Counted from the stretch's first letter, positions 2,085 to 48,082 are shown. The stretch: DNA of 64,000 nt from a virus (IMGVR_UViG_2799112265_000001:1-64000), one strand, 5' to 3'. Notes: a model not told the origin generated them from the sequence alone. Numbers and translations are program-made.

Positions 2085-2203
2085 GGGTGTTCCTTCGTTC
2101 GCGGTGGGGTGCGCGGGTTGCTCTCCCGCGCAGGATGGAGCAGCGGAGGCGTTAACCTCTTGCTTCCGTCTGGTGTACCATCCTACCTCCCCGAAGGGGC
2201 TGA

Positions 2204-2611
2204 TCAATCCCCGGCCAGTAGGTTCCTGACGGGAGTTGACGTCTGCGGGTCGTGGTCCTCGCGGTGCCGGTCGTACCAGGCGTCCAGCGCCTCGTACCCG
2301 TCGAGGACGCTGCCGGCATCCGTGGCCGCGCTCCACTCTGCGACGTCGTCCGCGTAGTCCGCTTCGACGGTGTCCGGGTCGCGGCGGCCCAGCGCGGCGG
2401 CCAGATCCTCCCAGCCTGTGCCTCCGAGGGCCTCGGCCAGCACGATCCGATCCACGTACTCGACAGCCAGCAGCCGCAAGCGGCGGGCCTGGTCGATGCG
2501 TTCGGCGGGGGTGGAGTCCTCGGCGATCGCACCGAGCGTCTGCCGGGCCAGGTCGGACAGGTCGCGGACGGTGCGGGCTGCGCTGACACGGGCCAGGATC
2601 TCGGGGGTCAT
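2204..2611 (-). CDS. Hypothetical helical protein, possible HTH
   Basis: 135 aa ORF with protein-like composition; GTGWEDLAAALG resembles an HTH helix. Confidence 0.55.
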   Translation of the reverse strand: MTPEILARVSAARTVRDLSDLARQTLGAIAEDSTPAERIDQARRLRLLAVEYVDRIVLAEALGGTGWEDLAAALGRRDPDTVEADYADDVAEWSAATDAGSVLDGYEALDAWYDRHREDHDPQTSTPVRNLLAGD

Positions 2612-2689
2612 GGGGCAGATCCGATCATGCAGGCGGCGGGCGCCCCGGCCGGGGGCCCGCCGCGGTGAGGGGTGGGGGGCGGAGGCGAC

Positions 2690-3943
2690 TTATACCGTTA
2701 CGGGCCGCGCCAGACGCGCCAGGTCCTCGACCGTGAACTTCGTGGGCACGTCGACGCCGCGTGAACTGAGATCGGCGGCGTAGCGGTTCAGGAGCCGGGT
2801 GCGGACCTTACGGCCGTTCCCACCGGACTGCTGGAGCAACTTCCCCATGCCCACACCGCACAAGTCGCCGCCCGGGGCGAAGCGGTCGACCTCGCCGGCC
2901 TCCAGCGCGGTGACGACGACCTCGTACAACTCGTTCTCCGTCATCGGCTCCTGGAGATCGTCCTCGCCAGGCGTCTCCTCGGCGTCCTTCTGCTGGAAGG
3001 ACGGCTGAGGGGGCAGTGCCGGGGCGGCCTTCGCCTGAGGCGGGATGACGGCGGTCGGCCGCCGGGCAGGAAGCGCTGCCGGCGTCTCGGCGGGCTTCGT
3101 CTCCTCCGGCTCGGGCTCCGGCATCACCACCTCGGCGACGGGCGCCAGGGCGGGCAGCAGCTCCAGGGTGTCGGGGTCGATGTCCGCGGCTGCCAGGCCC
3201 GCCGCCGCGGTGTGCTCCAGGGGGATGCCGCTGCGGGCCAGGCGCAGCGGCAACAGGGACTCGACGGGGGCCTTGCGGCGCCACGCGCGCCCGTACCTGG
3301 CGTGTAGCGCAGCCGCGTAGACCAGCCGCTGCTGCTCCAGCCGGAGCACGGTCTCGTACGACTGCTGCTCCCACAACTTCATCCGCCGCCACAGCAGGAA
3401 GGTCGGCAGCGGGTTGAGGAACCAGCGGGAGAAGCGGACCTTGTCGAGCTTCTTGCGGCGGCCGGTGACGGCACCGATCCGCACGGCGTAGGTGTGCGCG
3501 GCGATCTCGGAGACGGCAGCCCACAGCAGGGACATCGAGCCGTGTGCGAACTTCGCCCACAGGGAGTCTCCGGAGGCCACGTTAAGGGCGCAGGTGACCA
3601 GGCTGAGCACCCACGGGACGAGCCGCGCCCACCACAAGGGCATGTCGAGCCGGATCAGCAGCAGATAGGCGCCGGTGAACACGGGGACGGCGGAGTCGAT
3701 GGCGGTCGGCAGCACCCATGGGTCGGTGAATCCCCAGTGCGCGGCCGCCGTGGACACGGCGTCGAAGGAGGCGTAGAAGCCGAGCCCGCCGACGCCGGCA
3801 CCGCCGAGGACGATGCCGGCCGCGCCGAGCCGCTCCCACCGGGTGAGCGGCGGGACCTTCGACACGGAGGTGAGTGCGGCCGGCTGGTCGGGGAGCGGCG
3901 GTTTCTCGGGAACCCGGCGGGTGCGGCGGGGCAACAGGCTCAA
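2690..3943 (-). CDS. DUF2637 / SpdA-like membrane protein of actinomycete mobile elements
   Basis: About four N-terminal hydrophobic segments, PTAID and RWFLNPLPTFLLWRRMKLWE motifs, Pro-rich linker; RBS CGAAAGGA. Confidence 0.7.
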   Translation of the reverse strand: MSLLPRRTRRVPEKPPLPDQPAALTSVSKVPPLTRWERLGAAGIVLGGAGVGGLGFYASFDAVSTAAAHWGFTDPWVLPTAIDSAVPVFTGAYLLLIRLDMPLWWARLVPWVLSLVTCALNVASGDSLWAKFAHGSMSLLWAAVSEIAAHTYAVRIGAVTGRRKKLDKVRFSRWFLNPLPTFLLWRRMKLWEQQSYETVLRLEQQRLVYAAALHARYGRAWRRKAPVESLLPLRLARSGIPLEHTAAAGLAAADIDPDTLELLPALAPVAEVVMPEPEPEETKPAETPAALPARRPTAVIPPQAKAAPALPPQPSFQQKDAEETPGEDDLQEPMTENELYEVVVTALEAGEVDRFAPGGDLCGVGMGKLLQQSGGNGRKVRTRLLNRYAADLSSRGVDVPTKFTVEDLARLARPVTV

Positions 3944-4086
3944 GGCGACGTCCTTTCGTTCGGGGTCCCACCGGACGACTTATGCTCGTCGCCGTCCGGG
4001 GTCGACCAAACGATATAGCGTCCTCCGCTCGACCGCGCGGATCTCCTCACGCGCTGTCAGGTATGCCCCCCTCTGGGAAGGTTCGG

Positions 4087-4908
4087 TTACCAGTCGAGCG
4101 GCCGCGCGGGCTTGCGCCGATCCGGGCCGAGCACCTTCACGAGGTGCGCGGACGACTCCAGCCGGGACAGCAGCCGCTCCCCGAGGATGTCCACCACCCC
4201 CATGGCGTTGGTCTGCGGGTTGCGGCGACTGCCCAGGTTCGTGGTGTAGGCGGTCGGCCGGCCCGACGAGATCCGCGCGTCGATCAGGTCGATGGTTTCC
4301 CGCCGTGCGAACTCGGTGGCGGTCACGTCCATCTCGCCGCACAGCTCGTCGAGGATCAGCAGATCGCACTCCACGAACATCTTGCGGATCTCCCACGCCT
4401 TCATGTTCCGGGGCGCGGAGTCCGGGCGACGCCACGTCAGATACGCCGAGTGCTTCACCAACAGCGTCCGCAGTCCGCGCTCCGCGGCTTCGTTGCCGAG
4501 CGCCATGACCGCGGTGGTCTTCCCGGTGCCGATGTTGCCCGGCACGATCAGGTTCAGCGTGCCGGGCCGGGCGCCGGTCTTCTTCGCCTCCACCAGGGAG
4601 CCCAGCCAGTTCCGCAGCGTGTTGGGCTTCTGGTTGGGGTCGAGGTCGTCGAACCGGAAACGCAGGTACTCCTCCTGCGCGGCGTCAGCCACGCTGATCT
4701 TCCAGGCGTTCCGCTTCGCGCGGGCCTGGGGGACGGCGACGTCCTCCCACAGGCCGTCCTCGCCGGGGGCGGGCGGCATGGGGACGTCGATCCGGGCCAG
4801 GTCGGCACCGTTGCGCTCCAGCACCTTGAGCAGGTGGTCGCTCAGCGAGCCGAGCCGGTTCAGGCCGCGCTCAGGGGCGGACACGGGGGCCTCCAGGGTG
4901 AGGGACAT
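4087..4908 (-). CDS. DnaC/IstB-like ATPase, putative helicase loader
   Basis: Walker A GNIGTGKT, Walker B LLILDEL, YTTN, and ERLLSRL arginine-finger region. Confidence 0.85.
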   Translation of the reverse strand: MSLTLEAPVSAPERGLNRLGSLSDHLLKVLERNGADLARIDVPMPPAPGEDGLWEDVAVPQARAKRNAWKISVADAAQEEYLRFRFDDLDPNQKPNTLRNWLGSLVEAKKTGARPGTLNLIVPGNIGTGKTTAVMALGNEAAERGLRTLLVKHSAYLTWRRPDSAPRNMKAWEIRKMFVECDLLILDELCGEMDVTATEFARRETIDLIDARISSGRPTAYTTNLGSRRNPQTNAMGVVDILGERLLSRLESSAHLVKVLGPDRRKPARPLDW

Positions 4909-4914
4909 GCGTGG

Positions 4915-5976: not shown

Positions 5977-6269
5977 GCGGCGGCCTCGGAAGTGGTGCTG
6001 GCGGGGAGGAGACGCACGTAGGTGTGCCAGGTCTTGCGGTTCTTCGAGTGCCGCTCGTAGCGGCGCTCGCGCTCGGCCAGGCCGACGCGGCGCAGCTCGG
6101 CGAGCGGCATCCGGATCTCGTGGGACTTCATGCCGACGGCGGTGGCGACGTCCTGGCAGGAGATCCAGTCGTTGTCGGGGCGCAGGGCGAGTACGACGTA
6201 CAGACGGAATGCCCGGTCGGATATGTCGCTGGCAAGAACCGGGGTGATGGTGCTGGTGGGGATGGCCAT
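5973..6269 (-). CDS. Small winged-HTH protein
   Basis: ISDRAFRLYVVL..DVATAVG..LAELRRVGL; 4-nt overlap with the next gene. Confidence 0.65.
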   Translation of the reverse strand: MAIPTSTITPVLASDISDRAFRLYVVLALRPDNDWISCQDVATAVGMKSHEIRMPLAELRRVGLAERERRYERHSKNRKTWHTYVRLLPASTTSEAAA

Positions 6270-6330
6270 AGGAGTGGTGTCCTCGGGGAGAAGAAGGGCC
6301 CGGCCGCCGGGAAGGCCGGGCCCAGGGCGG

Positions 6331-6945
6331 TCAGTTCTGGGCGTCCTCGGCGGACGGCTGCGGGGGCGGCATGAGCTGCGGGGTGCCGCGCAGCAGGTGG
6401 TCGTACTCGCCCCGCTGCCAGGCCCGCAGCAGCCGGTTCTGGCCGACTTCCTTCTTCTCCCAGGTGAAGGTGACCGTGCCGGTGGCCTGGCCGCCCGGCT
6501 CGTACATCAGGCCGGGGATCTCCTCACCGTTGCGCTTGTCGAAGAACCGGCCGGTCTCCTCGTCCCGCTCGGCGTACCTCAGCAGCGCCTTGTCCCACGA
6601 CTGGCGGCGCCGGATCACGACCTCGGTGCCCTCGTGCCGCTCGGCGTACGCGTCGAGTTCGGCAACCTTGGCCGGATCGGGGTCGAAGACGATCTTCGGC
6701 TGGGTCTTGTTCACCGTGTACGTGCCGACGATTTCGTCTCCGGCCTTGATGACGACGCCGGTCTGACCGTGCTTCTCGTACGCGTCGACCAGCGCGCCCA
6801 GGGGGTCGTCGACGAGGGGCCCGAACACCGTCTTGTCCTGGCCCTCGCGGACCATGCGGGCCAGGGCGCCGAGCAACGCGCGTTCGTCGAGCTGAAGCGC
6901 GGGCGGCATGTTGGCGGTGCCGTCGTCGGTGACGTCGTGCGACAT
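6331..6945 (-). CDS. Hypothetical phage-like protein, first gene of the replication operon
   Basis: RBS AAGGAA before ATG; protein-like composition. Confidence 0.6.
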   Translation of the reverse strand: MSHDVTDDGTANMPPALQLDERALLGALARMVREGQDKTVFGPLVDDPLGALVDAYEKHGQTGVVIKAGDEIVGTYTVNKTQPKIVFDPDPAKVAELDAYAERHEGTEVVIRRRQSWDKALLRYAERDEETGRFFDKRNGEEIPGLMYEPGGQATGTVTFTWEKKEVGQNRLLRAWQRGEYDHLLRGTPQLMPPPQPSAEDAQN

Positions 6946-7414
6946 CGTGCGGTGTTCCTTTCTTTCCCCGGACACAGTCCCAGGGGGGCGGTTTCTCCCG
7001 GGCGGGGTGTTCGGGGCGTCGTAAGGAAGTACGACAACCGCCGAGATTTGTTACACCTAGGCCCAGGTAGCTGGGTTGCTCTCCCAACCACCTGAATAGT
7101 ACACCACTCGGAACCTTGCTGGTAGTGCCCCTCAGTGAATGTTTTTCAACGGCGGAAAACCCGTCACCGGACACAAGGCGCCAGCACCCTCTACCTTCCC
7201 GCTCGGCAGCGCACCGACCGGAGACGTCACCGGCTCCGGGGCGCCGCCCCGGAGCCGCCCCAACCGGAACGAAGGCGGCCCCGGACCGACCAGGGGCGGG
7301 GATCGGCCATGACGGCATGTCCCGCTTGCGAGGCGGGATGCTGCGGTAGAAGTCCGCAGGCTCGCAACCCCCGCCCCCGGCCGGAACCACCGACCGCGAG
7401 AGGACCGCCAGCCC

Positions 7415-12641: not shown

Positions 12642-13018
12642 CGCTGGTGGTCCTTGTCGCGCGCTATGGCGGCGTGGGCCTCCACGGCGGCGTCGATCTG
12701 GGCGGGGGTGATCTCTTCCATGTCGGACAGGATGAGGCGGCCGCCGCCGGGCAGGGTGGTCTCCTCGCGGTGCAGGCGCACCTCCTCCAGGCCGTCGCCG
12801 GTGCCGGCGTCCTGACGGGTGTCCACGGGCGCGTTGGCACGGCGGAAGGCGTTCAGCATGGCGTCGCGGGTGGACTTGATCCGGGCGGGGCTGCGGGTGG
12901 TGTCGGGTGCCAGGGCGCCCGCGGCCGCGAGCATGCGCCGGGTCTCGGCGTCATGAGGGACCGGGCCGCCCGCCAGGGCGCGCTCTAGACGATCCGCTGC
13001 CTCAGTGAGTCGTCGCAT
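12638..13018 (-). CDS. Putative anti-sigma factor resembling the RsbN N-terminal domain
   Basis: Overlaps the end of the ECF sigma gene; helical pattern ADRLERAL..RMLAAAGAL..RDAMLNAF. Confidence 0.45.
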   Translation of the reverse strand: MRRLTEAADRLERALAGGPVPHDAETRRMLAAAGALAPDTTRSPARIKSTRDAMLNAFRRANAPVDTRQDAGTGDGLEEVRLHREETTLPGGGRLILSDMEEITPAQIDAAVEAHAAIARDKDHQR

Positions 13019-13679
13019 GCTCGTCCCTTTCCACCGTTGTCCTGCCCGTCGTCGTTACACGGACTCCGACCACCTTCGCCCGGCCGCTCACCACCGTGAG
13101 CAGCTCCTCGATGAGCTTGGCGGAGGAATCCCCCGTGGGGAGCCCGGCCACGAACTTGGCCAGCGACCGTACCGTCAGCACGCGCACGGCGCCCGGACTC
13201 TTGCCCATAATCTGGCCGATTTCAGCCGGAGTAAGCCCCTCGAAGAATCGTAGCCTGAGGCAATCGCGCTGATTTGCGCGGAGCTTGCCGAGCTGCGTCT
13301 GTACGGCCTGGGCGAGCTGCTCGCGTTCCGCGCACTCGTGGGGGGTGAGGTCGGCGCGCGGCTGGTCGAGCTGCAGCAGGTCGGCGTGCAGCACCTCGTT
13401 GGGGCGGCGGCCCTGGGCGCGCAGGTAGTCGATGACCGTGTTGTTCGTGACGGTGTAGAGCCAGGCGGTCACGTTGGTGCCGGCCTGGTAGTGCTGCGCC
13501 TTCTGGGCGACCTTGAGCCAGACTTCCTGGGCGAGGTCTTCGGCGAGGTGGGCGTCGCGTACGCGCAGGCGGGTCCAGTTGTACACCTGCTGGTGGTGCT
13601 GGTTGTAGAAGTTCTCGAGCGCTTCTTCGTCGCCCTGTGCAGCCCGGACGAGGAGCTGGTCTGCGGATTGGCTGGTCAC
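13002..13679 (-). CDS. ECF RNA polymerase sigma factor, BldN-like
   Basis: AAQGDEEAL, AEDLAQEVWLK, AWLYTVTNN (region 2) and LRFFEGLTPAEIGQIMGKSPGAVR (region 4); RBS GGGGGA. Confidence 0.9.
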   Translation of the reverse strand: MTSQSADQLLVRAAQGDEEALENFYNQHHQQVYNWTRLRVRDAHLAEDLAQEVWLKVAQKAQHYQAGTNVTAWLYTVTNNTVIDYLRAQGRRPNEVLHADLLQLDQPRADLTPHECAEREQLAQAVQTQLGKLRANQRDCLRLRFFEGLTPAEIGQIMGKSPGAVRVLTVRSLAKFVAGLPTGDSSAKLIEELLTVVSGRAKVVGVRVTTTGRTTVERDEHATTH

Positions 13680-33515: not shown

Positions 33516-33594
33516 GGATGGCGCCTTTCAGCGGTACGAGGTGCGGTGGATGGTGAGCCGGGGCGCGGTGCTGCGCCCCGGCGGGGTGGAGCTG

Positions 33595-38346: not shown

Positions 38347-38492
38347 GGGGTGTTCCTTCGTTCGGGGTGCGGCCCCGGTTGCTCTCCGGGGCGGGGTGGG
38401 GCGGTGCGCCCTGCGCCTGACACCGGGGAGGGCCGGTGTGGGGGGCGGGGCGCACCGCCCGCCGTTGTGTGGGCGGGCGGTGCGGCGGGCGG

Positions 38493-38819
38493 TCAGCCGT
38501 CGGTGAGGATGCGGCGGGCGAGTCCGGCGGCCTGGGCGGCGCTGATGGCGTACACGATGACGAGGGCGGTGCCGGGGACGTCGAGGGTCTGGAGCTGGAA
38601 GTCGAGCGACTGGAGGTCGCGTTCCACGGGGTGGGACGCGGCGCGTTCGACGGCCAGGAGGTCGACGGTGAGATCCGGGTGGGCGGGCGTCCACCGGCAT
38701 CCGGTGTCGGCGAGGACGAAGTACTCCCCGGTGATCTTGCGGAGTTCCACGCGGTAGGCCGGGGCGCGGTCCATGTCTTCGGGGAGCGGCGGGGGCGTCT
38801 TGTCCAGGCTCACGGGCAC
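38493..38819 (-). CDS. Hypothetical protein, first gene of the leftward arm
   Basis: Behind a class I promoter, hairpin and RBS. Confidence 0.6.
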   Translation of the reverse strand: MPVSLDKTPPPLPEDMDRAPAYRVELRKITGEYFVLADTGCRWTPAHPDLTVDLLAVERAASHPVERDLQSLDFQLQTLDVPGTALVIVYAISAAQAAGLARRILTDG

Positions 38820-39052
38820 GGGTGTTCCTTCGTTCGGCGGTGTGGCCCGGTTGCTCTCCGGGCCCGGCGGGAAGCGCTCCCGCCGAGAAGAACAGTACAC
38901 CAGTCGGAACGATGCGCAACACCCTTCACAGACCAATAAAGCTGCTCTGATCAGTCCCGTTCCGAGTGGTGTACTTTTCCGGTGTGGTCATGTACTGTCG
39001 TCATCAGTCGGGGAGAGCAACCCCGACAACCACCGCCGAACGAAGGAACACC
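38820..39052. promoter_or_regulatory. Back-to-back divergent class I promoters, each with an AGAGCAA leader hairpin
   Basis: TTCCGACTGGTGTACTGT on the minus strand (~38892-38909) and TTCCGAGTGGTGTACTTT on the plus strand (~38960-38977). Confidence 0.7.
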
Positions 39053-39523
39053 ATGCGTCTGCGTGCCCTCTTCACCTGTCCCGCCGCCCTCCTCGCCGCC
39101 GGACTCGCCACCGCCACCGTGGCCATCGCCGCAGTGGCCGGCATGACCCCCACCGCCGCCGCGCCCCACCCGGCCCGCACCACCACCATCGCCGCCCCCA
39201 CGGCCACCGCCGACACCGTCGCCACCTTCAACGACGGCTTCACCGACGGCCGCTCCGACGCCATCGGCGACGACAACCGGAACAACCGCGTGGAGCCCGG
39301 CGAGACCGGCTGGAGCTGCCGCACCACCCCCGCCGCCGACCTCGACCTCTGCCTCCAGGTCGCCGCCCAGCCCTCCTACTCCTGGCGCGCCCCCAGCGGC
39401 GCCACCATCGGCAACCCCAACGGCCGCGCCCTGATCGCCGACCTGGAGGTCAAGCCCGGCACCCCGCTGTGGACGGACACCCTGCGCGCCCTGCACGCCG
39501 ACTACACCGCGCACACCCGCTGA
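39053..39523 (+). CDS. Secreted hypothetical protein
   Basis: Signal-peptide-like N-terminus; behind a hairpin and RBS. Confidence 0.65.
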   Translation: MRLRALFTCPAALLAAGLATATVAIAAVAGMTPTAAAPHPARTTTIAAPTATADTVATFNDGFTDGRSDAIGDDNRNNRVEPGETGWSCRTTPAADLDLCLQVAAQPSYSWRAPSGATIGNPNGRALIADLEVKPGTPLWTDTLRALHADYTAHTR

Positions 39524-39597
39524 CCCCACCGCCCACCAGCCGGGGCGCAGCCGCCGCGCCCCGGCCCCCTCCCCACCCCCACGAAAGGTGCCACCCC

Positions 39598-40026
39598 ATG
39601 GCCACGACGTTCGACCTCGACCCGTTCACGCGCCCGGTGCTGATGAGCGCCCGCCCGAACGACACGCACCCGTACGAGTACGACCCGGCCGCCGTGCGCA
39701 TCGTCCGCGCCGACCGCGTCCAGCACGGCGACGTGGTGCTCGGCGAGGTGTACGGCCACGACCCCGGCCACGCCGCCACGGTCAGCTACCTGCCGTACGG
39801 CTGCATCCCCTACGCCGCCCGGCCGCGCCCCATGGACCCCGCGTGCCCCTGCGAGCTGTGCCAGCAGCACCGTTCCGACCCGTTCACCTACCTCACGGAG
39901 CCGGTCGCGCTCACCGTGTGGCCGCGCGACGAACTCGACCTCGACCCGGTGTGCCAGTTGAACAACGCCGACGAGCTGGTGATGGTCATCCCCGCCCACC
40001 GGCTCCCCGAGCGCCCCGTCGCCTGA
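39598..40026 (+). CDS. Hypothetical protein with CxCxxC
   Basis: GAAAGG RBS; CPCELC. Confidence 0.6.
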   Translation: MATTFDLDPFTRPVLMSARPNDTHPYEYDPAAVRIVRADRVQHGDVVLGEVYGHDPGHAATVSYLPYGCIPYAARPRPMDPACPCELCQQHRSDPFTYLTEPVALTVWPRDELDLDPVCQLNNADELVMVIPAHRLPERPVA

Positions 40027-40095
40027 CCCTCCCTCGCCCTCGCCGGGGCGCAGCACCGCGCCCCGGCCCCCTCCCCCCCTGAAAGGCGCCCCCGC

Positions 40096-40527
40096 GTGTC
40101 CGTCCTGCCCCGCAGCACCCCCGCCCGCGTCCGCGACAGCCTCACCGCCGCACTGGCCGGCACTGCCGTTGAACTCACCGGGCCCGCCCCCCGCTCCGCC
40201 ATCACCTTCCTCGCCAGCTACCGGGGCGCGCAGTGGAAGGTCACGTACATGGGGCTCGGCAACCTGTGGGGCGTGACCGGCCCGGCCGGGTCCGGTACTG
40301 AGCACTCCGTCCCCCGGTTCACGGACGAGATCGCCGCCACCATCACCGCGCCGTGGCCGCAGCCGGAGAAGGCGCCCGCCGACCCGCACCCCGGCGTCCC
40401 GCGCACCCACCTCGGCGTCGACGTGCCCGAGCTGGTCCGCGCCCAGTGGAAGACTCCGCTCGGCGACGGATGGCGCCTCGGGGTGCGCTGCGCCGTGGGC
40501 AAGCTCCCCGACACCCGCCCCCGCTAG
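40096..40527 (+). CDS. Hypothetical protein
   Basis: GAAAGG RBS; operon context. Confidence 0.55.
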   Translation: MSVLPRSTPARVRDSLTAALAGTAVELTGPAPRSAITFLASYRGAQWKVTYMGLGNLWGVTGPAGSGTEHSVPRFTDEIAATITAPWPQPEKAPADPHPGVPRTHLGVDVPELVRAQWKTPLGDGWRLGVRCAVGKLPDTRPR

Positions 40528-40605
40528 AACCGCCCCCAGGGGCGCAGCACAGCCCCGCTGCGCCCCGCCCCGCCCGTACGACCACCTCAGGACTGGAGAA
40601 CCCCT

Positions 40606-40842
40606 GTGGCTGCTTCTGGCGCCCCCCTGTACCGCGACTGGACCGCGATGCGTCCCGCCGACTTCGACCAGGAAAGGCCGGCCGAGCCGGAGCGCCTGAT
40701 GGATGTGCGGCGGCCGGTGCTCGCCGAGCCGGACAAGTGCGGGACGGAGGCCCTGTTCGGGCAGGCCCCGCCGCCGCGCCGGAACCGGCAGGAGCGGCGC
40801 GGCGCCAGTGCGCCCGGTACGGGGGCCGAGACCCTGTTCTGA
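40606..40842 (+). CDS. Small hypothetical protein
   Basis: GGAG RBS; 78 aa. Confidence 0.5.
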   Translation: MAASGAPLYRDWTAMRPADFDQERPAEPERLMDVRRPVLAEPDKCGTEALFGQAPPPRRNRQERRGASAPGTGAETLF

Positions 40843-41007
40843 CCGGTGCGCCGGGGGGCGGGATGTCCGGGCGTGAGTGGGTCGGCCAGGGAGCCTGAAA
40901 TTAGTTCCCCTGGCCGCCTTGCCAGCGCGTTTCCGAATGGTGTACTGTTTTTCTTGTTGGCGGAGAGCAACCGCCAACACCACCGCCGAACGAACGGAAC
41001 ACCCGCC

Positions 41008-41442
41008 ATGGCCTCCACCCGTGCCCGCGCCGCCGCCGCCGAACTCCGCAACCGCGCCCGCGCCGCCCGCGAACTCCGCACCGCCACCAAGGCCGTGGCC
41101 ACCGGCACCGCCTCCGCCTCCAACCACCTGATGGCGGGCGGCGTCACCCCCCTGGTCGCCCACAACTACGCGGCCACCCTCACCCGCAAGACCAAGAGCA
41201 TCGGCCGGACCCCGCTCGCCAGCCGCACCATCAAGAAGCGCCCCGGCAAGAAGGGCCTCACGGTCTCCCGCACCGGCGACCTCGCCCGCATGAAGCGGCA
41301 CCGCGTCGTCCCCGTCGCCCTCTGGACCCTCGAAGACCTCCGCGCCCTCGCCCTCTCCGGCTTCCGCCCGAAGAACACGCAGGTGGCCGACTTCCTCGCC
41401 GCGCTCGCCCTCGGCCGCCCCGCCGCCCGCGCCGCCGCCTGA
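41008..41442 (+). CDS. Very basic Arg/Ala-rich protein, putative nucleic-acid binder
   Basis: MASTRARAAAAELRNRARAARELR, KKRPGKK; behind a class I promoter and hairpin. Confidence 0.65.
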   Translation: MASTRARAAAAELRNRARAARELRTATKAVATGTASASNHLMAGGVTPLVAHNYAATLTRKTKSIGRTPLASRTIKKRPGKKGLTVSRTGDLARMKRHRVVPVALWTLEDLRALALSGFRPKNTQVADFLAALALGRPAARAAA

Positions 41443-41564
41443 CCGACCCTCAGACCGGCCCTCAGACCGGCCGGGGCGCAGCCCCCTCCCCCCTGCTGCG
41501 CCCCGGCCCCCCGGACACCACCACACCCGCGCCCCAGCGCGCCCTCGAACGGAGCCACCACGCC

Positions 41565-42098
41565 ATGAGCACCGCCCTCGCCCCGCTGCCCAACGCCCTC
41601 GCCGCCGCCCACCGCGCCCGCACCATCGCCGACTCGATCCGCGAGCAGCCCAACCACGACGCCGCGCTCCCGCAGCTCCTCACCGCCGCCGCCGACGTGT
41701 TCGCCACCGAGCCGCCCCAGGTGTTCGACGGAACCACCGTCACCAACACCGTCCCCGCCGACGCCATGTTCGCGCTCTGGAAGGCCGACGAGATCGCCGC
41801 CGAGACCCCCAGCAGCGGCCTCCCCGAGAACTTCACGGACTACGTGCTCGCCCCCGTCTTCCGCCGCCCCCTGCCCTTCCCCGACGCCGTCCACGCCCGC
41901 AGCGCCCAGCTCGCCCGCCAGCAGCACGTCTTGCGGGACCGGCTCACCTCGGTACACGAGACGCTCAACGCCCACCCGCTCGACACCAGCGACCGCACCA
42001 CGCACCTGATCCGTACCGCGCTCGCCCTCCACGCCGGGCTCGCCCACCTGGCCGACGTCATCCGGCTGGACAACACGCGCCCCTGCTACCGCCGCTGA
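41565..42098 (+). CDS. Hypothetical helical protein
   Basis: CGGAG RBS. Confidence 0.6.
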   Translation: MSTALAPLPNALAAAHRARTIADSIREQPNHDAALPQLLTAAADVFATEPPQVFDGTTVTNTVPADAMFALWKADEIAAETPSSGLPENFTDYVLAPVFRRPLPFPDAVHARSAQLARQQHVLRDRLTSVHETLNAHPLDTSDRTTHLIRTALALHAGLAHLADVIRLDNTRPCYRR

Positions 42099-42200
42099 CC
42101 CACCCCCAGCCGGGCGGGCGTAGCAACCCGCGCCCGCCCGGCGTTCCCCCCGGTGAGAGCAACACCGGGACCCACCCCGAACCGAAGGAACACCCGCACC

Positions 42201-42995
42201 ATGAGCACCGGCACCAGCCCGTACGTGTACAACCCCGCCCCCGGCACCGAGTACCCGTTCAGCATCAGCGACATCGCCCGCGCCGCCCGCACCCTGCTCG
42301 GCCCCCGATGGCTTGCCGAGTCCGGCCACTGGGGCACCACCGGCACCCTCTCCGCCGCCTACACCGCCGACTTCACGCTGAGCATCGACAGCGAGGGAGA
42401 CCTCTGCATCGACTTCACCCGGTACACGGAAGACGGCTTCCCCGAGACGCCCGAGCTGCCCGAAGGCGTCGAGGACATGGACGGCGGCGTGTACCTCCCT
42501 GTCGCGTGCAGCGTCGACGGCCTGGACGAGCTGGCCGGCATAGTCGCCGCCGCGATCCGAGCCGTGACCGGCTGCCCGCCCTACACGCTCGCCGAGATCA
42601 CTGCCCCGGCCGAGCTGGACTTGCTCCCCACCGTCGACGTGATCGCGGTACGCGACGCCGCCGAGAACGTCCTCCAGCGGCGCGGGGAGGAAGCGCTCCC
42701 CGGCATGGTTCACGCCGCCGTCCGTAAGTTCCTCGCCGACCAGCCGGACGCCCGCCCGCTGGGCGTCCGGTTCACCACTAAGTGCTACGACGACGGCTTC
42801 TTCTGGGACTTGGGGGACGCCCTCGTGAGCTTCCCGGACGGCACCTTCCGTGAGGTCGACTTGACGGGACGGGACGACGACCTGAAGGCGCTGAACGGCG
42901 CCCTGATCGATCACGCCAAGTGGGCCGGGGAGGTCGGCCCCGGCAGCACGCTCACCGTGCAGTTCGACCCGCCCGCGCTGGTCGCCGCGCTCTAG
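42201..42995 (+). CDS. Acidic two-domain hypothetical protein
   Basis: Behind a class II-like promoter, hairpin and RBS. Confidence 0.65.
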   Translation: MSTGTSPYVYNPAPGTEYPFSISDIARAARTLLGPRWLAESGHWGTTGTLSAAYTADFTLSIDSEGDLCIDFTRYTEDGFPETPELPEGVEDMDGGVYLPVACSVDGLDELAGIVAAAIRAVTGCPPYTLAEITAPAELDLLPTVDVIAVRDAAENVLQRRGEEALPGMVHAAVRKFLADQPDARPLGVRFTTKCYDDGFFWDLGDALVSFPDGTFREVDLTGRDDDLKALNGALIDHAKWAGEVGPGSTLTVQFDPPALVAAL

Positions 42996-43094
42996 CCCCC
43001 CGCCCCCGTCCGGGGCCCCGTACGCCACCGCGCGCCGGGCCCGGCCGGGGGAGCCTCACCCCGACGCCCTACCGCACGAAGGACACGCCCGACC

Positions 43095-43565
43095 ATGAGC
43101 ACCGCCCCCTCCGTCTTCACCCTTCCCGACATCCTCGCCGCCCTGCACGCCGGGGTGGAGCTGACCGCCGACGAGTCCGGACTCGACTTCCTCGACGGCC
43201 GGTTCACCTGGCCGTACGCCGCGACCCTCGCCCGCCTCGACAACCCCGACACCACCTGGTCCCAGGTGAGCGACCGGCACGACAAGCTGCGCCAGCTCTG
43301 GTCGGCCGGCACGGACCTCCCGGACACCGACGACGACGCCCGGACGTACACCCGCGAGCAGGTGAGCACGGCCGTGAACTGGGCCGTGGACGAGGCCGCC
43401 GACATCAACCATCTGGGCGGCTGCGCCGACGACGTGGACAACTTCCTCGTCAACGCCGTCCTGACCCTGCTGGACGACCCCGACGCCGCATTCACCGACG
43501 TGGTCGACGAGTGCTACGGCGAAGACCCGGACCTTGTGTCCCGGTGGCTCCACGACGCCGCCTGA
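43095..43565 (+). CDS. Acidic hypothetical protein with internal duplication
   Basis: ATLARLDNPDTTWSQV versus AVLTLLDDPDAAFTDV; CGAAGGA RBS. Confidence 0.65.
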   Translation: MSTAPSVFTLPDILAALHAGVELTADESGLDFLDGRFTWPYAATLARLDNPDTTWSQVSDRHDKLRQLWSAGTDLPDTDDDARTYTREQVSTAVNWAVDEAADINHLGGCADDVDNFLVNAVLTLLDDPDAAFTDVVDECYGEDPDLVSRWLHDAA

Positions 43566-43702
43566 CCTGCCGCCACCCTCGCCCGCAGCTTGGGGCGGTT
43601 CCGCCCCGAGCTGCGCCCCCTGGGACGCAAGCAGCGTCCCGCTGGCCCCATACGGCCGGAGAGCAACCGGCCGCCGTAACCCGAATCGAAGGAACACCCG
43701 CG

Positions 43703-44536
43703 ATGAACACCCTCGCCGTTGCCCACGCCGCCGCCGCCACGGCCCTCGCGCAGCTCCTGCCCGCACGCCGTGGCGTCGCCTGGCAGCCCGGCCCCGCCGC
43801 CTTCCCCGTGCACCCCGACGCGCCGACCACCCGGCTCACCCAGCACGACCGCACCCTGATCGTCGCCGAGCACCAGGGCGCCATCGAGGTCTGGGCGGGC
43901 GAGCCGCAGACCGTGTTCTGCCGCCCGGCCGCCGTGGTCGACGCCAGCACCCCGGACGCCGTCGCCGTCCTGGCCGCCGAGGTACTGCGCAGCGTGCTCC
44001 CCGCCCTCGACAACGAGGCGGCCCGCTACACCGGCCCCAACCACGACCACAAGCAGGTGGTCCGCGCCAAGGAGCGGGCCCTCATAGAGCTGGGCTACCT
44101 GCTGCGCGACCTGGGCGCGGCCGACCTGGCGGGCCGCCAGCACATCGACGGGCCCGGCCTGCACTGGAAGACCAGCGAGGGCGCGGAGTGGGACGTGCTG
44201 TCCCTCGGATACCAGGGCACGTTCACCGTGGCGTACAACGGGCCGATCAGCGGCCTGCACGGGCTGCTGCCGTACCTGCTGCGCCCCACCCCGGGTGACG
44301 GCCACACCGACACGGGCAGCGCCTTCACACGCCACCTGGGCGCCCGATTCCCGCAGTTGGCCCCCGTCGACGCCCACGAGGTGGACTTCGGCCGCATCGA
44401 CACCCCCGGTGGATACATCGCGCTGCCGTCCCTCGACGTGTGCCCGGACCACGCCGACGACTCCACGCGGGTCGCCTCGCAGATCGCCCACGTCGGTATC
44501 GACCTGCTGCTGGCCGCCGCCTCCGCGCTCGTCTGA
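43703..44536 (+). CDS. Hypothetical protein, paralog of 44606..45469
   Basis: Behind a hairpin and RBS; shared LLPAR, RL.Q..R.LI, VLPA.D.E and G.DLL motifs. Confidence 0.65.
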   Translation: MNTLAVAHAAAATALAQLLPARRGVAWQPGPAAFPVHPDAPTTRLTQHDRTLIVAEHQGAIEVWAGEPQTVFCRPAAVVDASTPDAVAVLAAEVLRSVLPALDNEAARYTGPNHDHKQVVRAKERALIELGYLLRDLGAADLAGRQHIDGPGLHWKTSEGAEWDVLSLGYQGTFTVAYNGPISGLHGLLPYLLRPTPGDGHTDTGSAFTRHLGARFPQLAPVDAHEVDFGRIDTPGGYIALPSLDVCPDHADDSTRVASQIAHVGIDLLLAAASALV

Positions 44537-44605
44537 CCGTCCCGCCGCCGCCCGCCGCGCCCCTGCCCGTCCGGGGGGCGCGGCACCCCGAGAGGAACCC
44601 GCCTG

Positions 44606-45469
44606 ATGACCACCAGCACCCCGGCCGGCCCGACGACCCCGGCCTCCGTACCGCCGTGCCCCGCGCTCACCCTCGCCGACCGGGTCGCCGCGCTGCTGCC
44701 CGCCCGTGACGGCGAACTCTGGGCCGTGCAGCCCTACCGGGCATGGTGGACGGTCCAGCCCGCCGCCCGCCTCGTCCAGGGCGGCCGAGCCCTGATCCTG
44801 TCCTGGCACCCGTGGAGCACCGGCGTGGCCTGGCAGCTCCCCGACCGGGAGCCGTACCAGCCCGACGCCAAGACCGACGAGATCGGCGCCCGGCATGTTG
44901 CCGACGTGCTGCTGCGCCACGTGCTGCCCGCCGTGGACGACGAGCTGGCCGGCCGGGACACCCGCGATGGCGCCGAGGTACGCCGCGAGCGCCTCGCCCG
45001 CATCGGACACGTCATGCGGAGGCAGGGTGTGGCCACCCTCGAACAGGCGGGCCCGTTGGAGTCCGCCGCGCACTGCACGTGGGGGACACCGTCCGGACTG
45101 CGGTACACGCTCACCCTGTTCGGCACCAACCCCGCCGGGCACCTCACCGTGGAAGGCCCCGTCGCGGCCGTGGAGGCGACGCTCGCCACGTTCCTGCCCG
45201 CCCGGCAGGACAAGACCCCTCGGATACCGCTGCGCCACGTACGGGGCCGTATGCAGCGCCGCATGGCCGCGTTCCTCGCCCGGCACACCGACGTGGAGCA
45301 GGTCGACTCCGGGGCGCTCGCCTTCGGCAGCGGGGACACCCCGTACGGGTTCGTCGCCACCCCCACCGACCCGGTCGCCCGCGTCCGGGACACCAGCCCC
45401 GTCACGGTGGAGCTCCACGGCCTGGGCGCCGACCTCCTCGCCTACCTCGCCCCCCAGCTCACCCGCTGA
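44606..45469 (+). CDS. Hypothetical protein, paralog of 43703..44536
   Basis: GAGAGGA RBS; same shared motifs as the previous gene. Confidence 0.65.
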   Translation: MTTSTPAGPTTPASVPPCPALTLADRVAALLPARDGELWAVQPYRAWWTVQPAARLVQGGRALILSWHPWSTGVAWQLPDREPYQPDAKTDEIGARHVADVLLRHVLPAVDDELAGRDTRDGAEVRRERLARIGHVMRRQGVATLEQAGPLESAAHCTWGTPSGLRYTLTLFGTNPAGHLTVEGPVAAVEATLATFLPARQDKTPRIPLRHVRGRMQRRMAAFLARHTDVEQVDSGALAFGSGDTPYGFVATPTDPVARVRDTSPVTVELHGLGADLLAYLAPQLTR

Positions 45470-45540
45470 CCCACCCCCTGGTGCGCCCCGTACGGCCCTC
45501 ACCGCCGTGCGGGGCGCACCGTCCCGGAAGGACTCAACCC

Positions 45541-46017
45541 GTGCCCCTGAACAAGGCCACCGTCTCCGCGTTCGATGACGCGCTCGCCAAGCTGGCCACC
45601 GCCGCGCGCGCCCTGATCCCGATGATCGCCGAGACGCTGCACGCCCAGTTCCCCACCGGCGCCTACCTCGTACTCACCCGCTCCAAGGACCCCGGCCACG
45701 CCGACGACGTGCTCTTCCTGAACTCGGTACGCGACGCCAGCGGTGGCATCGTCTGCTGGCTCGACCCGTCCGGGGGCGCCCTCGACCCGCTCCCGGCCGT
45801 CCCCCCGGAGATCGCCGCCCGGTGGGGGGACAGTGACCCCCGGAGTCAGCGGGACCTCCTCGACCTGCTCCAGGCCGTCGACGCCGTCGACCGGTACACG
45901 TTCTTCGACTGGCTGCCCGATGAGGCGCGGCGCCCCGGCGAGAGCGACTACCGGGAGCCGATCGGGGTTCCCCTGCCGTGCCAGTGCCGAGTCAGCGGGG
46001 AGTGTGCGCCGTGCTGA
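45541..46017 (+). CDS. Hypothetical protein
   Basis: GAAGGA RBS before GTG. Confidence 0.55.
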   Translation: MPLNKATVSAFDDALAKLATAARALIPMIAETLHAQFPTGAYLVLTRSKDPGHADDVLFLNSVRDASGGIVCWLDPSGGALDPLPAVPPEIAARWGDSDPRSQRDLLDLLQAVDAVDRYTFFDWLPDEARRPGESDYREPIGVPLPCQCRVSGECAPC

Positions 46018-46394
46018 AGCCCGCCGCCACGGAGCAGCTCGCCGAGCTGGCCGGCCACCTGGCCACCGCCCCGTCCGGCTCCATCGCCACGGCGATCGAC
46101 GCCGCCGAGGTCCGCGCGGAGACGATGCGCGGACGGCACACCGATGAGGCGTTCGGCCGGTACTGCCGGTCCGCGCTGCCGCTGATCCTGCGCCGCCTGC
46201 TGGACGCGGAGTCCCAGCTCGCCGCGCTCCGTGCCCAGTCCGCCCGGCATGTGGCGGCGGCCGATCTCGGGGACGAGCCGTCCCCGGCCGAGCTGCTCGA
46301 CGGGTACCGGCGCGCCGGGGTCGACCTGGCGGAGGAGATCGAGGAGGCGCGGGCCGAGCTGGAGGCGGAGGCTTACGCCTTTGCCCTTTCATGA
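46011..46394 (+). CDS. Hypothetical protein
   Basis: GGGGAG RBS; overlaps the previous gene. Confidence 0.55.
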   Translation: MLKPAATEQLAELAGHLATAPSGSIATAIDAAEVRAETMRGRHTDEAFGRYCRSALPLILRRLLDAESQLAALRAQSARHVAAADLGDEPSPAELLDGYRRAGVDLAEEIEEARAELEAEAYAFALS

Positions 46395-46518
46395 CCAGCG
46401 CCCCGCGCCCTGTGCCGAGCTGGCCGGGGCGCGGGGTGTAACAGGTCGGGCCGAACCGGCGTTCCCCTTCACGATCACCTGATCGCCGCCGTCCTCGCCG
46501 GAAGTGAGACCCGTACCG

Positions 46519-46986
46519 ATGTCTAACCGTCATGACTCCCGTAGCCCGATCGCCCTCGTCCTCGCCGGAACCCTCGCCCTCGTCATCGGGGTCGGCATCA
46601 TCATGGGCGTCATCGCTGGCTCGAAGGCGTTCGGCCGCTACCAGAGCATGTCCGACGCGAAGAACGAGGCGCAGATAGCCCTGGTCCACGCCCGGAACAA
46701 GGTCACCGTGACCGAGATCGAGATCCGGAACCAGAACCAGCGCATCCAGGTCACGAAGCAGAAGGCGCAGATCCGGTACGAGGAGGCCGTCGGCCTGCGC
46801 CACGCCCAGGACGAGGTGGCCAAGACCCTGACCCCGCTGTACGTGCAGATGGAGTACGCGCGGGCCCTGGAGGAGATCGCCAAGTCGGGCAAGAACAACA
46901 GCGTGGTGTACATCCCGACCGGTGAGGGTGGCGTGCCGCTGGTGTCCGGCGTGGCCGGCCAGCCGCAGGTCTCGCCCCGCAAGTAG
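46519..46986 (+). CDS. Membrane-anchored coiled-coil protein with SPFH/prohibitin-like C-terminus
   Basis: N-terminal transmembrane helix; TLTPLYVQMEYARAL..VVYIP; class II promoter upstream. Confidence 0.6.
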   Translation: MSNRHDSRSPIALVLAGTLALVIGVGIIMGVIAGSKAFGRYQSMSDAKNEAQIALVHARNKVTVTEIEIRNQNQRIQVTKQKAQIRYEEAVGLRHAQDEVAKTLTPLYVQMEYARALEEIAKSGKNNSVVYIPTGEGGVPLVSGVAGQPQVSPRK

Positions 46987-46996
46987 GTTCGCGGCA

Positions 46997-47030
46997 CCCA
47001 CGCTTCGGGCGGACCCGCCCGAAGCGTGGG
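46997..47030 (+). terminator. Hairpin after 46519..46986
   Basis: Inverted repeat cccacgcttcgggcgg / ccgcccgaagcgtggg. Confidence 0.7.
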
Positions 47031-47123
47031 GTGTAACAGGTTCGGTCAGGCGGCCGTTCCCCACTGCACCAGGTGCGGTCGGGGAGCGGCCGCCACACGT
47101 TTGCCCGCCGAGGAGCCGTCCGC

Positions 47124-47825
47124 ATGTCCCGTCACTCCCGCAAGAAGCCCACCCAGCACGACCGCGTCCACCGGCACGCCGCGCTCGACCTGCTGCTGCC
47201 CCGGCTGGAGGCCGGCCGCCTCACCGCCGAGGAGGCGAAGCTCCTGGCCGCGTACGTCCGCGAGGAGGTCCGGCTCGGGACGAAGGCCCGCAAGTCCCTG
47301 ACGCGTACGAACCGGCGGCTGGCTGAGCACAGGGAGGCCGCGGACACGGCGATACGCGAGGCGGAGCAGCGCGCGGCCGAGCTGGAGAAGAGGCTGACCG
47401 AGGCGGAGGCCGTCAGGAACCAGGGCAGGTACCGGCATGTGTCCGCCCCGGCGGGCGTGGAGCAGGAACGTCTGGATGCGCGGCGTGGCTCGGCCCGGTG
47501 GATGATCGCGCAGCCCTCCCTGACGGTGGCCGACGGGATGAAGCTGCGCGAGCACTTCGACGCCGAGGCCGCCGAGCGGGACGGGTTCCGCTCGATGCTG
47601 TGGCAGGTGCTCGGCCTGCTGACCCCGGTATACGTGAACGGCAAGACGGCCTTCTTCGAGTGCAGGAACCCGGTGAAGCCGGATGCCGTGCGGTACTGGG
47701 AGGCGGCGCTGGGGCTGGGGGACGGGCAGTCGCGTTGGGCGCCGCCACTGGCTGACCACGCCGGCCTGACGAACAAGATGGCGAACGAGTACGGCGCACT
47801 CGCCCGCAAGCTGTGGGCCTCCTGA
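47124..47825 (+). CDS. Hypothetical coiled-coil protein
   Basis: GAGGAG RBS; class II promoter upstream. Confidence 0.6.
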   Translation: MSRHSRKKPTQHDRVHRHAALDLLLPRLEAGRLTAEEAKLLAAYVREEVRLGTKARKSLTRTNRRLAEHREAADTAIREAEQRAAELEKRLTEAEAVRNQGRYRHVSAPAGVEQERLDARRGSARWMIAQPSLTVADGMKLREHFDAEAAERDGFRSMLWQVLGLLTPVYVNGKTAFFECRNPVKPDAVRYWEAALGLGDGQSRWAPPLADHAGLTNKMANEYGALARKLWAS

Positions 47826-47904
47826 CGGCTTCCCCGTCCTCAACCTGTCGGCCCCGGCGCCTGGTCGGGGCCGGCTCTCGTGTTGCCCCAGGTCGCACCG
47901 GGGA
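47820..47904 (+). repeat. 85-bp direct repeat, copy 1
   Basis: Colinear with 58603-58687; about 12 mismatches by hand count. Confidence 0.8.
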
Positions 47905-48082
47905 GGGGGGCCGGTCTCTCGGCGACTCCCGCCGTGGCGACGCTCGGCTCCCAGCTCACGGCCGAAACCGCGCTCAAGCAATCAGCGCATCGCTGACCAG
48001 CCTCATTCCGAATGGTGTACTATCGCGGTGTTGGTGGAGAGCAACCACCAGCACCACCGCGAAACGAAGGAACACCCGCCCG

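Follow-up and report, generated by a model that had tools for sequence, protein, structure and literature searches.

A short hairpin followed by a ribosome-binding tract looks like an undescribed control tag placed before about 19 non-virion genes of a Streptomyces virus, a temperate, probably plasmid-like siphovirus related to phage Gilgamesh. The replicon is a 131,782-bp virus record, and the window analysed here is its first 64 kb. It holds 15 of the 19 hairpin copies in the replicon, with four more beyond it; all 15 reported in the initial annotation are real and correctly placed, 14 with the loop AGAGCAA and that at 13863-13883 with AGAGCGA. The window contains 15 occurrences of AGAGCAA itself where 2.35 ± 1.45 would be expected; none of 100 shuffles reached 15 (maximum 7), and 14 of the 15 sites are loops bounded by uninterrupted pairing of 7-14 bp. 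An AGAGCAA at 18591 (plus strand) was rejected as a member, as it lies inside a coding-looking HTH-type ORF and lacks a ribosome-binding block. The hairpins go with the 5' leaders of genes spread over the element, in keeping with the element-wide gene set first proposed; every copy is sense to its downstream gene (19/19), and none precedes a gene of the virion module. The modules in the window are as follows, SAS denoting the ribosome-binding block, after the Cluster K mycobacteriophage elements compared below:

2082-2132, minus strand: module of an AAA-ATPase-like gene (596 aa); hairpin 2110-2132, 8 bp, loop AGAGCAA, 60.7 bits; A/C-rich leader, SAS-like ribosome-binding site, GTG at 2084
7062-7096, minus strand: atypical copy (7076); hairpin of up to 14 bp, AGAGCAA, right behind a class I promoter box, 38.4 bits; start codon 6939, 116 nt downstream, with a class II promoter-like site (7055, minus) between; orthologous copies in Gilgamesh, G002, G003 and G004
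13863-13916, plus strand: module; hairpin 13863-13883, 7 bp, loop AGAGCGA, 47 bits; leader, ribosome-binding block with GGAGCACC, ATG 13914; divergent from a sigma-factor gene
28046-28103, minus strand: module without class I promoter, 19 nt past the upstream gene; hairpin 28079-28103, 9 bp; leader, SAS, ATG 28048
30014-30070, minus strand: class I promoter and module; hairpin 30046-30070, 9 bp; SAS variant GAAAGGCACGCC; ATG 30016
31973-32025, minus strand: class I promoter and module of a DUF2958 protein gene; hairpin 32001-32025, 9 bp; SAS; ATG 31975
34420-34473, minus strand: class I promoter and module; hairpin 34449-34473, 9 bp, three G.U; SAS; ATG 34422
35671-35726, minus strand: class I promoter and module; hairpin 35702-35726, 9 bp; SAS; ATG 35673
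38344-38392, minus strand: module without class I promoter; hairpin 38372-38392, 7 bp; SAS; ATG 38346
38817-38864, minus strand: module; hairpin 38844-38864, 7 bp; SAS; GTG 38819; class I promoter 29 nt upstream, with a second hairpin intervening
39007-39055, plus strand: module; hairpin 39007-39027, 7 bp; SAS; ATG 39053; lies divergently to the 38851 copy, with the end of a second TACTGT box 8 nt 5' of the hairpin
40955-41010, plus strand: class I promoter and module; hairpin 40955-40979, 9 bp, 70.1 bits; SAS variant GAACGGAACACC; ATG 41008
42149-42203, plus strand: module; hairpin 42149-42169, 7 bp; SAS; ATG 42201; class II promoter-like site 42119-42145 upstream
43653-43705, plus strand: module without class I promoter; hairpin 43653-43673, 7 bp; SAS; ATG 43703
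48027-48085, plus strand: class I promoter and module of a C5 DNA methylase gene; hairpin 48027-48055, 11 bp, stem including G.U pairs; SAS; ATG 48083

The stems are conserved as structures. For the 18 clear copies in the replicon, aligned on a 9-pair structure, 90.1% of cells were paired versus 57.5% in shuffled controls, and the covariation score was 0.784 versus 0.186; neither value was equalled in any of 500 shuffles. Shifting the 3' arm by 1-3 columns reduced pairing to 29-54%. In the seven inner pairs, 125 of 126 cells hold a standard pair, including ten G.U or U.G and no A.C, so the pairing holds on the sense strand only. These data bear out the earlier claims that the stems differ yet always pair and that their G-T pairs form only on the mRNA-like strand, and the sense-strand G.U pairs point to mRNA as the acting form.

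Copy numbers of 10-24 were found in Gilgamesh and in each of at least seven related proviruses or plasmid-like elements from Streptomyces (84-128 kb). Across 87 distinct copies from at least nine genomes, pairing stands at 86.1% versus 58.6%, which supplies the covariation among homologs that had been proposed as a check, and G.U cells outnumber A.C cells 32 to 10. The loop is AGAGCA or AGAGCAA in 73 of the 87; among the other 14 are several loops that differ by one base (AGAGCGA, AGAGCAG, AGAGCG, AGAGCTA), together with a few that are more divergent. The 7-nt loop had been described as fixed, and it is indeed constrained, but relatives mostly have the 6-nt form, so the invariant core is AGAGCA, constant over 62 different stems. 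Orthologous genes tend to keep the tag (24 of 29 pairs, versus 6 of 210 for untagged genes) at protein identities of 37-79%. Taken together, these results support the family as genuine: its members are structured on the sense strand, their stems covary and their loop is constrained in sequence. A search of Rfam 15 at the gathering threshold gave no match in the window or in the rest of the replicon, in agreement with the initial view that this is not a described family; a permissive scan of 38300-43800 returned one chance-level match (E 0.53) off any hairpin, and no published description of the family was found in the literature searched.

Downstream of the hairpin, 17 of the 19 copies have a leader rich in A and C and then a ribosome site of the CGAAGGAACACC type. 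Measured from the hairpin's 3' end, the AGG of the ribosome-binding site (RBS) is 11-18 nt away and the start codon 24-31 nt away (17/19 for each distance). As annotated, 14 of the 15 window copies lead directly into a CGAA..GAAGGAACACC block and then a start codon, the exception being the 7076 copy. Exact AAGGAACAC sites number 15 in the replicon, of which 12 are downstream of a hairpin and one forms the distal RBS in the 7076 leader. Tagged leaders consist of 31% A, 45% C, 22% G and 2% T, compared with 18/37/33/12 before other genes, and their predicted RBS accessibility is higher (0.52 versus 0.42; p = 0.002). Together with its orthologues, the 7076 copy is the best conserved and sits 116 nt from its start codon, indicating that the hairpin can persist without proximity to an RBS.

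We suggest, with a probability of about 0.45, that this leader tag is read by some factor and controls translation initiation. The tag has two parts, a 7-9-bp hairpin with a fixed loop core, AGAGCA(A), on a free stem, and, starting 11-18 nt beyond it, an unstructured A/C-rich leader ending in the fixed CGAA..GAAGGAACACC block 7-10 nt from the start codon. Marking the first gene in about 19 short non-virion transcription units, it would act in cis, as RNA. A sequence-specific trans factor, either a phage or a host protein, would recognise the loop and set the rate of translation initiation across the whole gene set; because the distance from hairpin to Shine-Dalgarno sequence is fixed, such a factor could tune initiation. 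What is inferred here is the presence of the hairpin in transcripts, the binding of its loop by a factor and an action at the level of translation.

So constituted, the tag would be a translational operator or enhancer comparable to sites in phage T4, where the RegA sites, the gp43 hairpin operator and the gp32 leader are translational operators. Operators of the RegA/gp43 type are bound by a phage-encoded repressor, and that of gp43 consists of a small hairpin, specific in its loop, directly 5' of the Shine-Dalgarno sequence. In both cases early or non-virion mRNAs across the phage share an RNA site at or beside the RBS, which the site adjoins here. In sequence, neither loop nor RBS is related to its T4 counterpart, and the copies here are more numerous and have a more cassette-like uniformity. 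No RNA-binding protein was recognised among the conserved unknown proteins in Pfam, PHROGs or NCBIfam.

Alternative readings turn in part on how the hairpin relates to promoters. The five copies set apart in the initial annotation (2110, 28080, 38372, 42149 and 43653) do lack a class I promoter, having no GGTGTAC box within 150 nt upstream. The separability deduced from them extends to the class I box but less surely to promoters in general: copy 42156 is 3 nt downstream of a second-class promoter-like site and copy 72676 is 7 nt downstream of a TAnnnT box, so some copies without a class I promoter may still be at the 5' end of a transcript. Where a class I promoter is present (n = 10), the hairpin begins 1-8 nt past the -10 box in seven copies, exactly 8 nt in five of those seven, which places it at the predicted 5' end and fits a 5'-end function equally with a translational one. 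The hairpin might therefore be a 5'-terminal stabiliser and/or processing mark, with the RBS block an independent strong initiation site, an account we judge somewhat unlikely. It would shield the 5' end of the primary mRNA (or, at internal copies, the processed mRNA) from decay by RNase J/RNase E, its loop being recognised by a factor for processing or protection. The known comparators are 5'-stabiliser hairpins of the E. coli ompA leader type and the intercistronic processing hairpins of T7 and SP82, which the present hairpins resemble in forming the predicted first nucleotides of transcripts and in recurring between early-array genes. Seven of the 10 promoter-linked copies have their first paired base at the predicted start site or next to it; at 38851 another hairpin takes that place, and at 39014 the second TACTGT box is 8 nt before the hairpin. 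The positions of 42156 and 72676 favour the same account, as do the 7076 copy, promoter-proximal though far from its RBS, and the internal copies, which come after G+C-rich hairpins closing the upstream gene. However, these start sites are predicted only, and a purely structural protector needs neither a fixed loop sequence nor a fixed distance to the start codon; the comparators are defined by structure or by helices of RNase III length and have neither, whereas RNase III requires helices longer than the 7-9-bp stems found here.

A promoter-proximal hairpin would also suit a nut/boxB-like or LoaP-type antitermination site, at which a phage factor on the nascent hairpin would carry RNA polymerase past the G+C-rich hairpins found behind almost every array gene; we regard this as quite improbable. 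The lambda nut site combines boxA with boxB, a 5-nt GNRA-like loop on a 5-bp stem bound by an N-type arginine-rich protein, and boxB occurs once per early operon, not tied to start codons. The resemblance lies in a short, variable G+C stem with a conserved, sequence-specific loop in nascent RNA just past early promoters, and copies do recur behind intergenic hairpins. The boxB-like character first proposed survives only as an analogy of function: the loop, AGAGCA(A) of 6-7 nt, is unlike that of GNRA-type boxB, no boxA-like partner was noticed, and the copies, 19 in number, are tied to start codons (24-31 nt before them in 17/19) rather than occurring once or twice per operon. Moreover, the Gilgamesh annotation includes no NusG-like or N-like protein, and a terminator scan of 27000-46900 found no enrichment of canonical terminators (5 versus 3.5 expected). 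A further concern, for the translational reading, is common descent, since copies 30055, 32010, 34458, 35711 and 40964 share a nearly identical promoter-hairpin-RBS cassette of about 90 nt, and part of the fixed spacing could come from its duplication. Taken to its limit, the tag would be a functionless moron-type promoter-leader cassette, spread by duplication or recombination before newly acquired genes and conserved through recent copying, and three of these five copies do precede ORFs without a homologue in Gilgamesh, G003 or G004. This is very unlikely, as neutral copying would not yield 62 distinct compensated stems under a fixed loop; the tag is retained at orthologues diverged to 37-79% identity, and the loop is constant despite promoter boxes and linkers that vary between lineages. 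Least probable, to the point of being barely credible, is an element acting as DNA, a cruciform or folded single strand for a recombinase (attC-like) or a single-strand promoter. Conservation of the inverted repeat in structure only, arrays made of small accessory genes and the two tyrosine integrases encoded by Gilgamesh speak for it. The constant sense orientation, the fixed distance before the start codon and the fused ribosome-binding block downstream all weaken it, together with the single-stranded DNA option raised initially, and the G.U pairs are possible on the non-template strand only. Integron attC sites are long imperfect hairpins that carry extrahelical bases and R/L boxes and close promoterless cassettes on the 3' side; their stems are far longer than those of these 21-35-nt hairpins, which are 5' of genes, often joined to a promoter and fused to an RBS; Streptomyces conjugation, in addition, transfers double-stranded DNA. 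What has held of the earlier interpretation is the covarying sense-strand leader family, while single-stranded DNA, separability from the promoter and likeness to boxB have lost ground.

The closest analogue of the tag is the SAS/ESAS system of Cluster K mycobacteriophages, in a different host genus and phage group. There the SAS has a 13-nt consensus, GGGATAGGAGCCC, with at most two deviations, 3-8 nt before start codons (PMC3203893). The block here, CGAA..GAAGGAACACC within the CGAAGGAACACC-type site, does not match that consensus and is unrelated in sequence, but position and orientation are alike: both are asymmetric conserved blocks over the RBS a few nucleotides ahead of the start codon, conserved beyond the rRNA-pairing core and present in 11-19 copies per genome, in a single orientation and outside virion genes. 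Likewise, our 19 sense copies precede non-structural genes and stay with gene families over related phages, as in the 24 of 29 orthologue pairs. About half of the SAS copies have an upstream inverted repeat, the ESAS. ESAS arms are imperfect 17-bp inverted repeats of conserved sequence, in which the deviations give no support to RNA pairing, and its authors favour a DNA-binding protein. In contrast, the arms here are 7-9 bp, have 62 distinct sequences with compensatory pairing, and leave the loop as the conserved part. Phage-wide translation-start tags have been known since 2011, and the hairpin family is a cleaner case, with strong RNA-structure evidence, an obvious recognition determinant in the loop and a cultivable member, Gilgamesh on S. 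lividans. It is a candidate for Rfam, and a covariance model could mark genuine start codons and the borders of units in the Streptomyces phage-plasmids of roughly 85-130 kb, which form a widespread group. The hairpin with its open A/C-rich RBS might also serve as a compact portable leader for high-G+C hosts.

A 338-nt gap (replicon 130085-130423), where the virion gene block ends, contains about 250 nt of conserved, structured plus-strand sequence, one conserved segment of which reads as the SAS block in reverse complement (GGTGTTCC core). Compared by eye within this genome, the segment matches several tagged leaders at about 16-17 of 18 nt, a better fit than to its own downstream RBS. One could imagine a post-transcriptional regulon with two readers, a protein on the AGAGCA loop and the 130085-130423 RNA on the RBS block, an idea we hold to be speculative and rather unlikely. 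If true, a late-expressed RNA would mask the Shine-Dalgarno sequences of all tagged early and accessory mRNAs simultaneously, an RNA-guided counterpart to T4 RegA.

Within the window the heptamer AGAGCAA occurs 15 times, compared with 2.35 expected. The hairpins reported in the initial annotation are present: 14 of these copies form the loops of perfect hairpins at the coordinates it had assigned, and its fifteenth hairpin was confirmed at 13863-13883 with the loop AGAGCGA. Further copies were found in the replicon (the whole record) beyond the window:

72676, hairpin copy
73250, hairpin copy, 6 bp behind a T.C mismatch
79671, hairpin copy

A covariance model was built from the 18 clear copies and searched over the replicon, adding one weak copy (130373-130429, loop AGAGCAG, E ~1e-6; next match E 0.25) for a total of 19 among roughly 150 genes. 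The element had been put forward as new, and the hairpin family indeed matches no Rfam family: at the gathering threshold there were 0 matches in the window and 0 in the rest of the replicon, and permissive scans of 38300-43800 and of locus L004 (positions 6000-6480) returned one chance-level row each.

The AGAGCAA at 18591 was rejected as a family member, since it lies inside a coding-looking HTH-type ORF and is not accompanied by the RBS block described below. This 210-aa ORF with an HTH-like stretch (18371-19003, plus strand) holds the only non-family AGAGCAA, which sits by chance in a 7-bp hairpin. The surrounding region of ~1 kb (17958-19027) was skipped by the GC3-based gene caller and has a lower G+C content (~0.68); the ORF may encode a repressor and be foreign in composition.

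In this genome's 18 clear copies, pairing reached 90.1% of cells, compared with 57.5% in shuffles, while sliding one arm lowered pairing to 29-54%; all nine stem pairs vary on both sides. For the seven inner pairs, 125 of 126 cells hold a standard pair, with G.U in 10 and A.C in none, and therefore the helix exists on the sense strand only. Homologues were pooled by searching 53 loci, which yielded 97 matches, 87 of them distinct. Here the covariation anticipated by the initial annotation was found, with 86.1% of cells paired (58.6% shuffled) and a covariation score of 0.592 (0.148 shuffled). Fitting the 87-copy alignment to the model favours the structure; slid controls reached only 25-50%, which argues that the pairing effect is real. 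These copies comprise 62 distinct stem forms with a G.U:A.C ratio of 32:10, and their loops read AGAGCA (41), AGAGCAA (32) or other forms (14). Mimicry of an anticodon loop, a T-loop or an RNase P substrate was dropped on inspection by eye, as U does not occur at the second position of the loop, the majority of loops have 6 nt and no consistent RCCA follows the stem.

The hairpin forms part of an mRNA-leader tag, together with an A/C-rich leader and a fixed RBS block (the SAS block). In 17 of 19 copies the 3' end of the hairpin lies 11-18 nt from the AGG of the RBS and 24-31 nt from the start codon, the exceptions being copy 7076 (hairpin 7062-7096, minus strand) at 116 nt and the weak copy at 130382 at 33 nt. 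From the hairpin to the start codon the composition is 31% A, 45% C, 22% G and 2% T, and this segment has a higher predicted accessibility than other start regions. The exact sequence AAGGAACAC is present at 15 sites: a hairpin precedes 12 of them, and another serves as the distal RBS in the 7076 leader; the RBS block is thus specific to the tag.

A class I promoter box, GGTGTAC[T/C], precedes 10 copies. In seven of these the first paired base falls 1-8 nt after the -10 element (exactly 8 nt in five), so that these hairpins are predicted to lie at the 5' end of the transcript. Several copies had been described as having no class I promoter directly upstream, making the element separable from the promoter. 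The absence of a class I box stands, but one of those named may not be promoterless: copy 42156 (hairpin 42149-42169, plus strand) begins 3 nt after a promoter-like site of a second class (TGTAAC..CGTT). Copy 72676, also with no class I box, lies 7 nt after a TAnnnT box. Members of the second family read TGTAAC(A)-N16-18-CGT(T/A), often with CCCC next, and lie at these positions:

42119-42145, window, plus strand, class II site
46437, window, plus strand, class II site
47032, window, plus strand, class II site
50802, window, plus strand, class II site
52646, window, plus strand, class II site
58916, window, plus strand, class II site
59655, window, plus strand, class II site
27591, window, minus strand, class II site
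7055, window, minus strand, class II site
74819, replicon, plus strand, class II site
89249, replicon, plus strand, class II site

One of these is directly 5' of hairpin 42156 and another lies within the long, well-conserved 7076 leader, whose conservation we attribute to that site. The phage encodes a sigma factor of its own (13002-13586, minus strand), to which the class II family probably belongs.

Five promoter-hairpin-RBS cassettes of ~90 nt are near-identical:

30086, promoter box of a cassette
32041, promoter box of a cassette
34489, promoter box of a cassette
35742, promoter box of a cassette
40939, promoter box of a cassette

Three of the five lie ahead of ORFs for which three relatives have no homologue. 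The stretch just 5' of the -10 box is lineage-specific, being TTTCCnnnTGGTG here and other boxes in the related genomes G001-G003 and in G004, suggesting that a DNA-binding regulator is specific to the phage and that the cassettes evolve in concert within each genome. A scan of 27000-46900 detected no consensus sigma-70 site, and its five terminator-like sites compare with 3.5 expected, showing no enrichment of canonical terminators; both results are uninformative for this G+C-rich phage. In the two divergent arrays spanning 27000-49500, most genes are followed by a G+C-rich hairpin lacking a T run.

Tagged genes stand at the head of short non-virion units. Their products were scanned against Pfam (14 of 19, plus three more among ten conserved unknowns) and PHROGs (18), and most had no recognisable function, the exceptions being a C5 DNA methylase, a DUF2958 protein, an ATPase-like protein and an FtsK/SpoIIIE-like translocase; in the related Streptomyces phage Gilgamesh a queuine tRNA-ribosyltransferase-like gene is also tagged. 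Among three untagged proteins scanned against PHROGs, the sigma factor was recognised. When a protein that might read the loop was sought, the ten conserved unknowns gave no meaningful Pfam match and no NCBIfam match. The tag stays with its gene: at orthologues in Gilgamesh, G003 and G004 it was found in 24 of 29 pairs for tagged genes versus 6 of 210 for untagged genes, where orthologues were tblastn matches covering at least 60% of the query and gene calls were our own and crude.

The window, with a G+C content of ~72%, is the opening 64 kb of a single-contig virus record of 131,782 bp. Genes in the remainder of the record code for a portal-MuF fusion, a major head protein, a tape measure and an FtsK/SpoIIIE-like protein. 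Among named relatives Gilgamesh (129 kb, host S. lividans) is the closest, annotated with ParA- and ParB-like proteins, two tyrosine integrases, a sigma factor and a giant head-module protein, and several 125-180-kb Streptomyces records filed as plasmids have genes in common with the window. Because of these virion genes, the par and integrase annotation of Gilgamesh and the plasmid-filed relatives, we take this element to be a siphovirus that is temperate and probably plasmid-like.

Every related record that was model-searched whole contained tag copies: Gilgamesh gave 24 matches at E <= 1 (15 at E < 0.001), and four IMG/VR records of 84-128 kb gave 10, 11, 12 and 19 at E <= 0.01. A pattern scan of IMG/VR returned 32 stretches, of which 25 were model-searched, producing 54 matches in 19 loci; the six negative loci held a single pattern match each. 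The same scan of genome contigs returned at least 120 stretches, and among the 32 loci given to the model 16 of 18 from Streptomyces and 0 of 14 from elsewhere were positive; several Streptomyces contigs among the matches listed are 92-128 kb long. Promoter boxes and linkers vary by lineage; the loop is constant.

Because the loop is fixed on freely varying stems, we propose that it would be recognised by a sequence-specific reader. Translation initiation is favoured as the step at which the tag would act because of the fixed distance to the RBS and the conserved bases after the Shine-Dalgarno sequence that are unable to pair with rRNA. That the tag acts on translation initiation through such a reader is our leading, tentative reading, with a probability of roughly 0.45. 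A role of the hairpin as a stabiliser or processing mark is possible though doubtful; it would suit the 5'-terminal position of the hairpins and the distance of the 7076 copy from its RBS. The other explanations fit less well than either of these. We consider it improbable that the hairpin is an antitermination site, and give about the same weight to mechanisms beyond those listed here; that the tag is a functionless spreading cassette appears somewhat less probable still, and action at the DNA level very improbable.

The nearest described system is the SAS/ESAS, the start-associated repeats of Cluster K mycobacteriophages (PMC3203893), which according to a later report were still functionally untested in 2025 (PMC12699233). 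The logic is the same, whereas the sequence is unrelated. Moreover, the upstream ESAS repeat as described there does not pair as RNA and that of the Streptomyces phages does, and it therefore differs in kind; we accordingly place the tag outside SAS/ESAS. A literature search on Gilgamesh found no paper, the element was absent by title and abstract from the Streptomyces phage-plasmid literature among the matches listed, and searches on conserved stem-loops and motifs in actinophages gave nothing relevant.

A 338-nt gap outside the window (replicon 130085-130423; L004 6085-6423), before a gp76-like gene, is conserved at the nucleotide level, in blocks, across eight related genomes, with no reading frame kept. 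A 13-bp helix closes its consensus fold, whose many G.U pairs place the modelled RNA on the plus strand; the gap had no Rfam match, and a single-sequence fold of the 251-nt gap RNA was no better than shuffles (z -1.3). Within the gap the reverse complement of the SAS block is conserved, with the GGTGTTCC core intact in five of eight genomes and differing by one or two changes in the rest. It could sequester the RBS of the tagged gene downstream in cis, act in trans as an antisense RNA, or be a decayed tag on the minus strand. The anti-SAS duplex energy of -32.0 kcal/mol for tagged leaders versus -22.2 kcal/mol for untagged ones restates the complementarity and is not independent of it. The gp76-like protein (272 aa) has a confident all-helical predicted fold (pLDDT 83.2, 7-row alignment) with nothing similar in the PDB at E <= 0.001 or in the protein atlas; a likeness to 14-3-3 proteins in the best rows (TM ~0.2) was read as meaningless.

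For Gilgamesh genes 10 and 137 (L113 8869-9052 and L005 20156-20214), tag-predicted starts differ from the deposited annotation. Homology and the tag extend the FtsK-like gene ~45 codons upstream of its annotated start, and for the methylase gene the tag predicts an ATG downstream of the annotated start, which falls within the hairpin. Within the head module, a 69-aa ORF with a CPY...W..GW signature (replicon 105071-105280; L003 1071-1280, plus strand) lies at the position corresponding to Gilgamesh gp51, which carries the annotation 'ribosome modulation factor', and has only a weak PHROG match (E 7e-4); if packaged and ribosome-acting, the protein could bear on translation of the tagged leaders.
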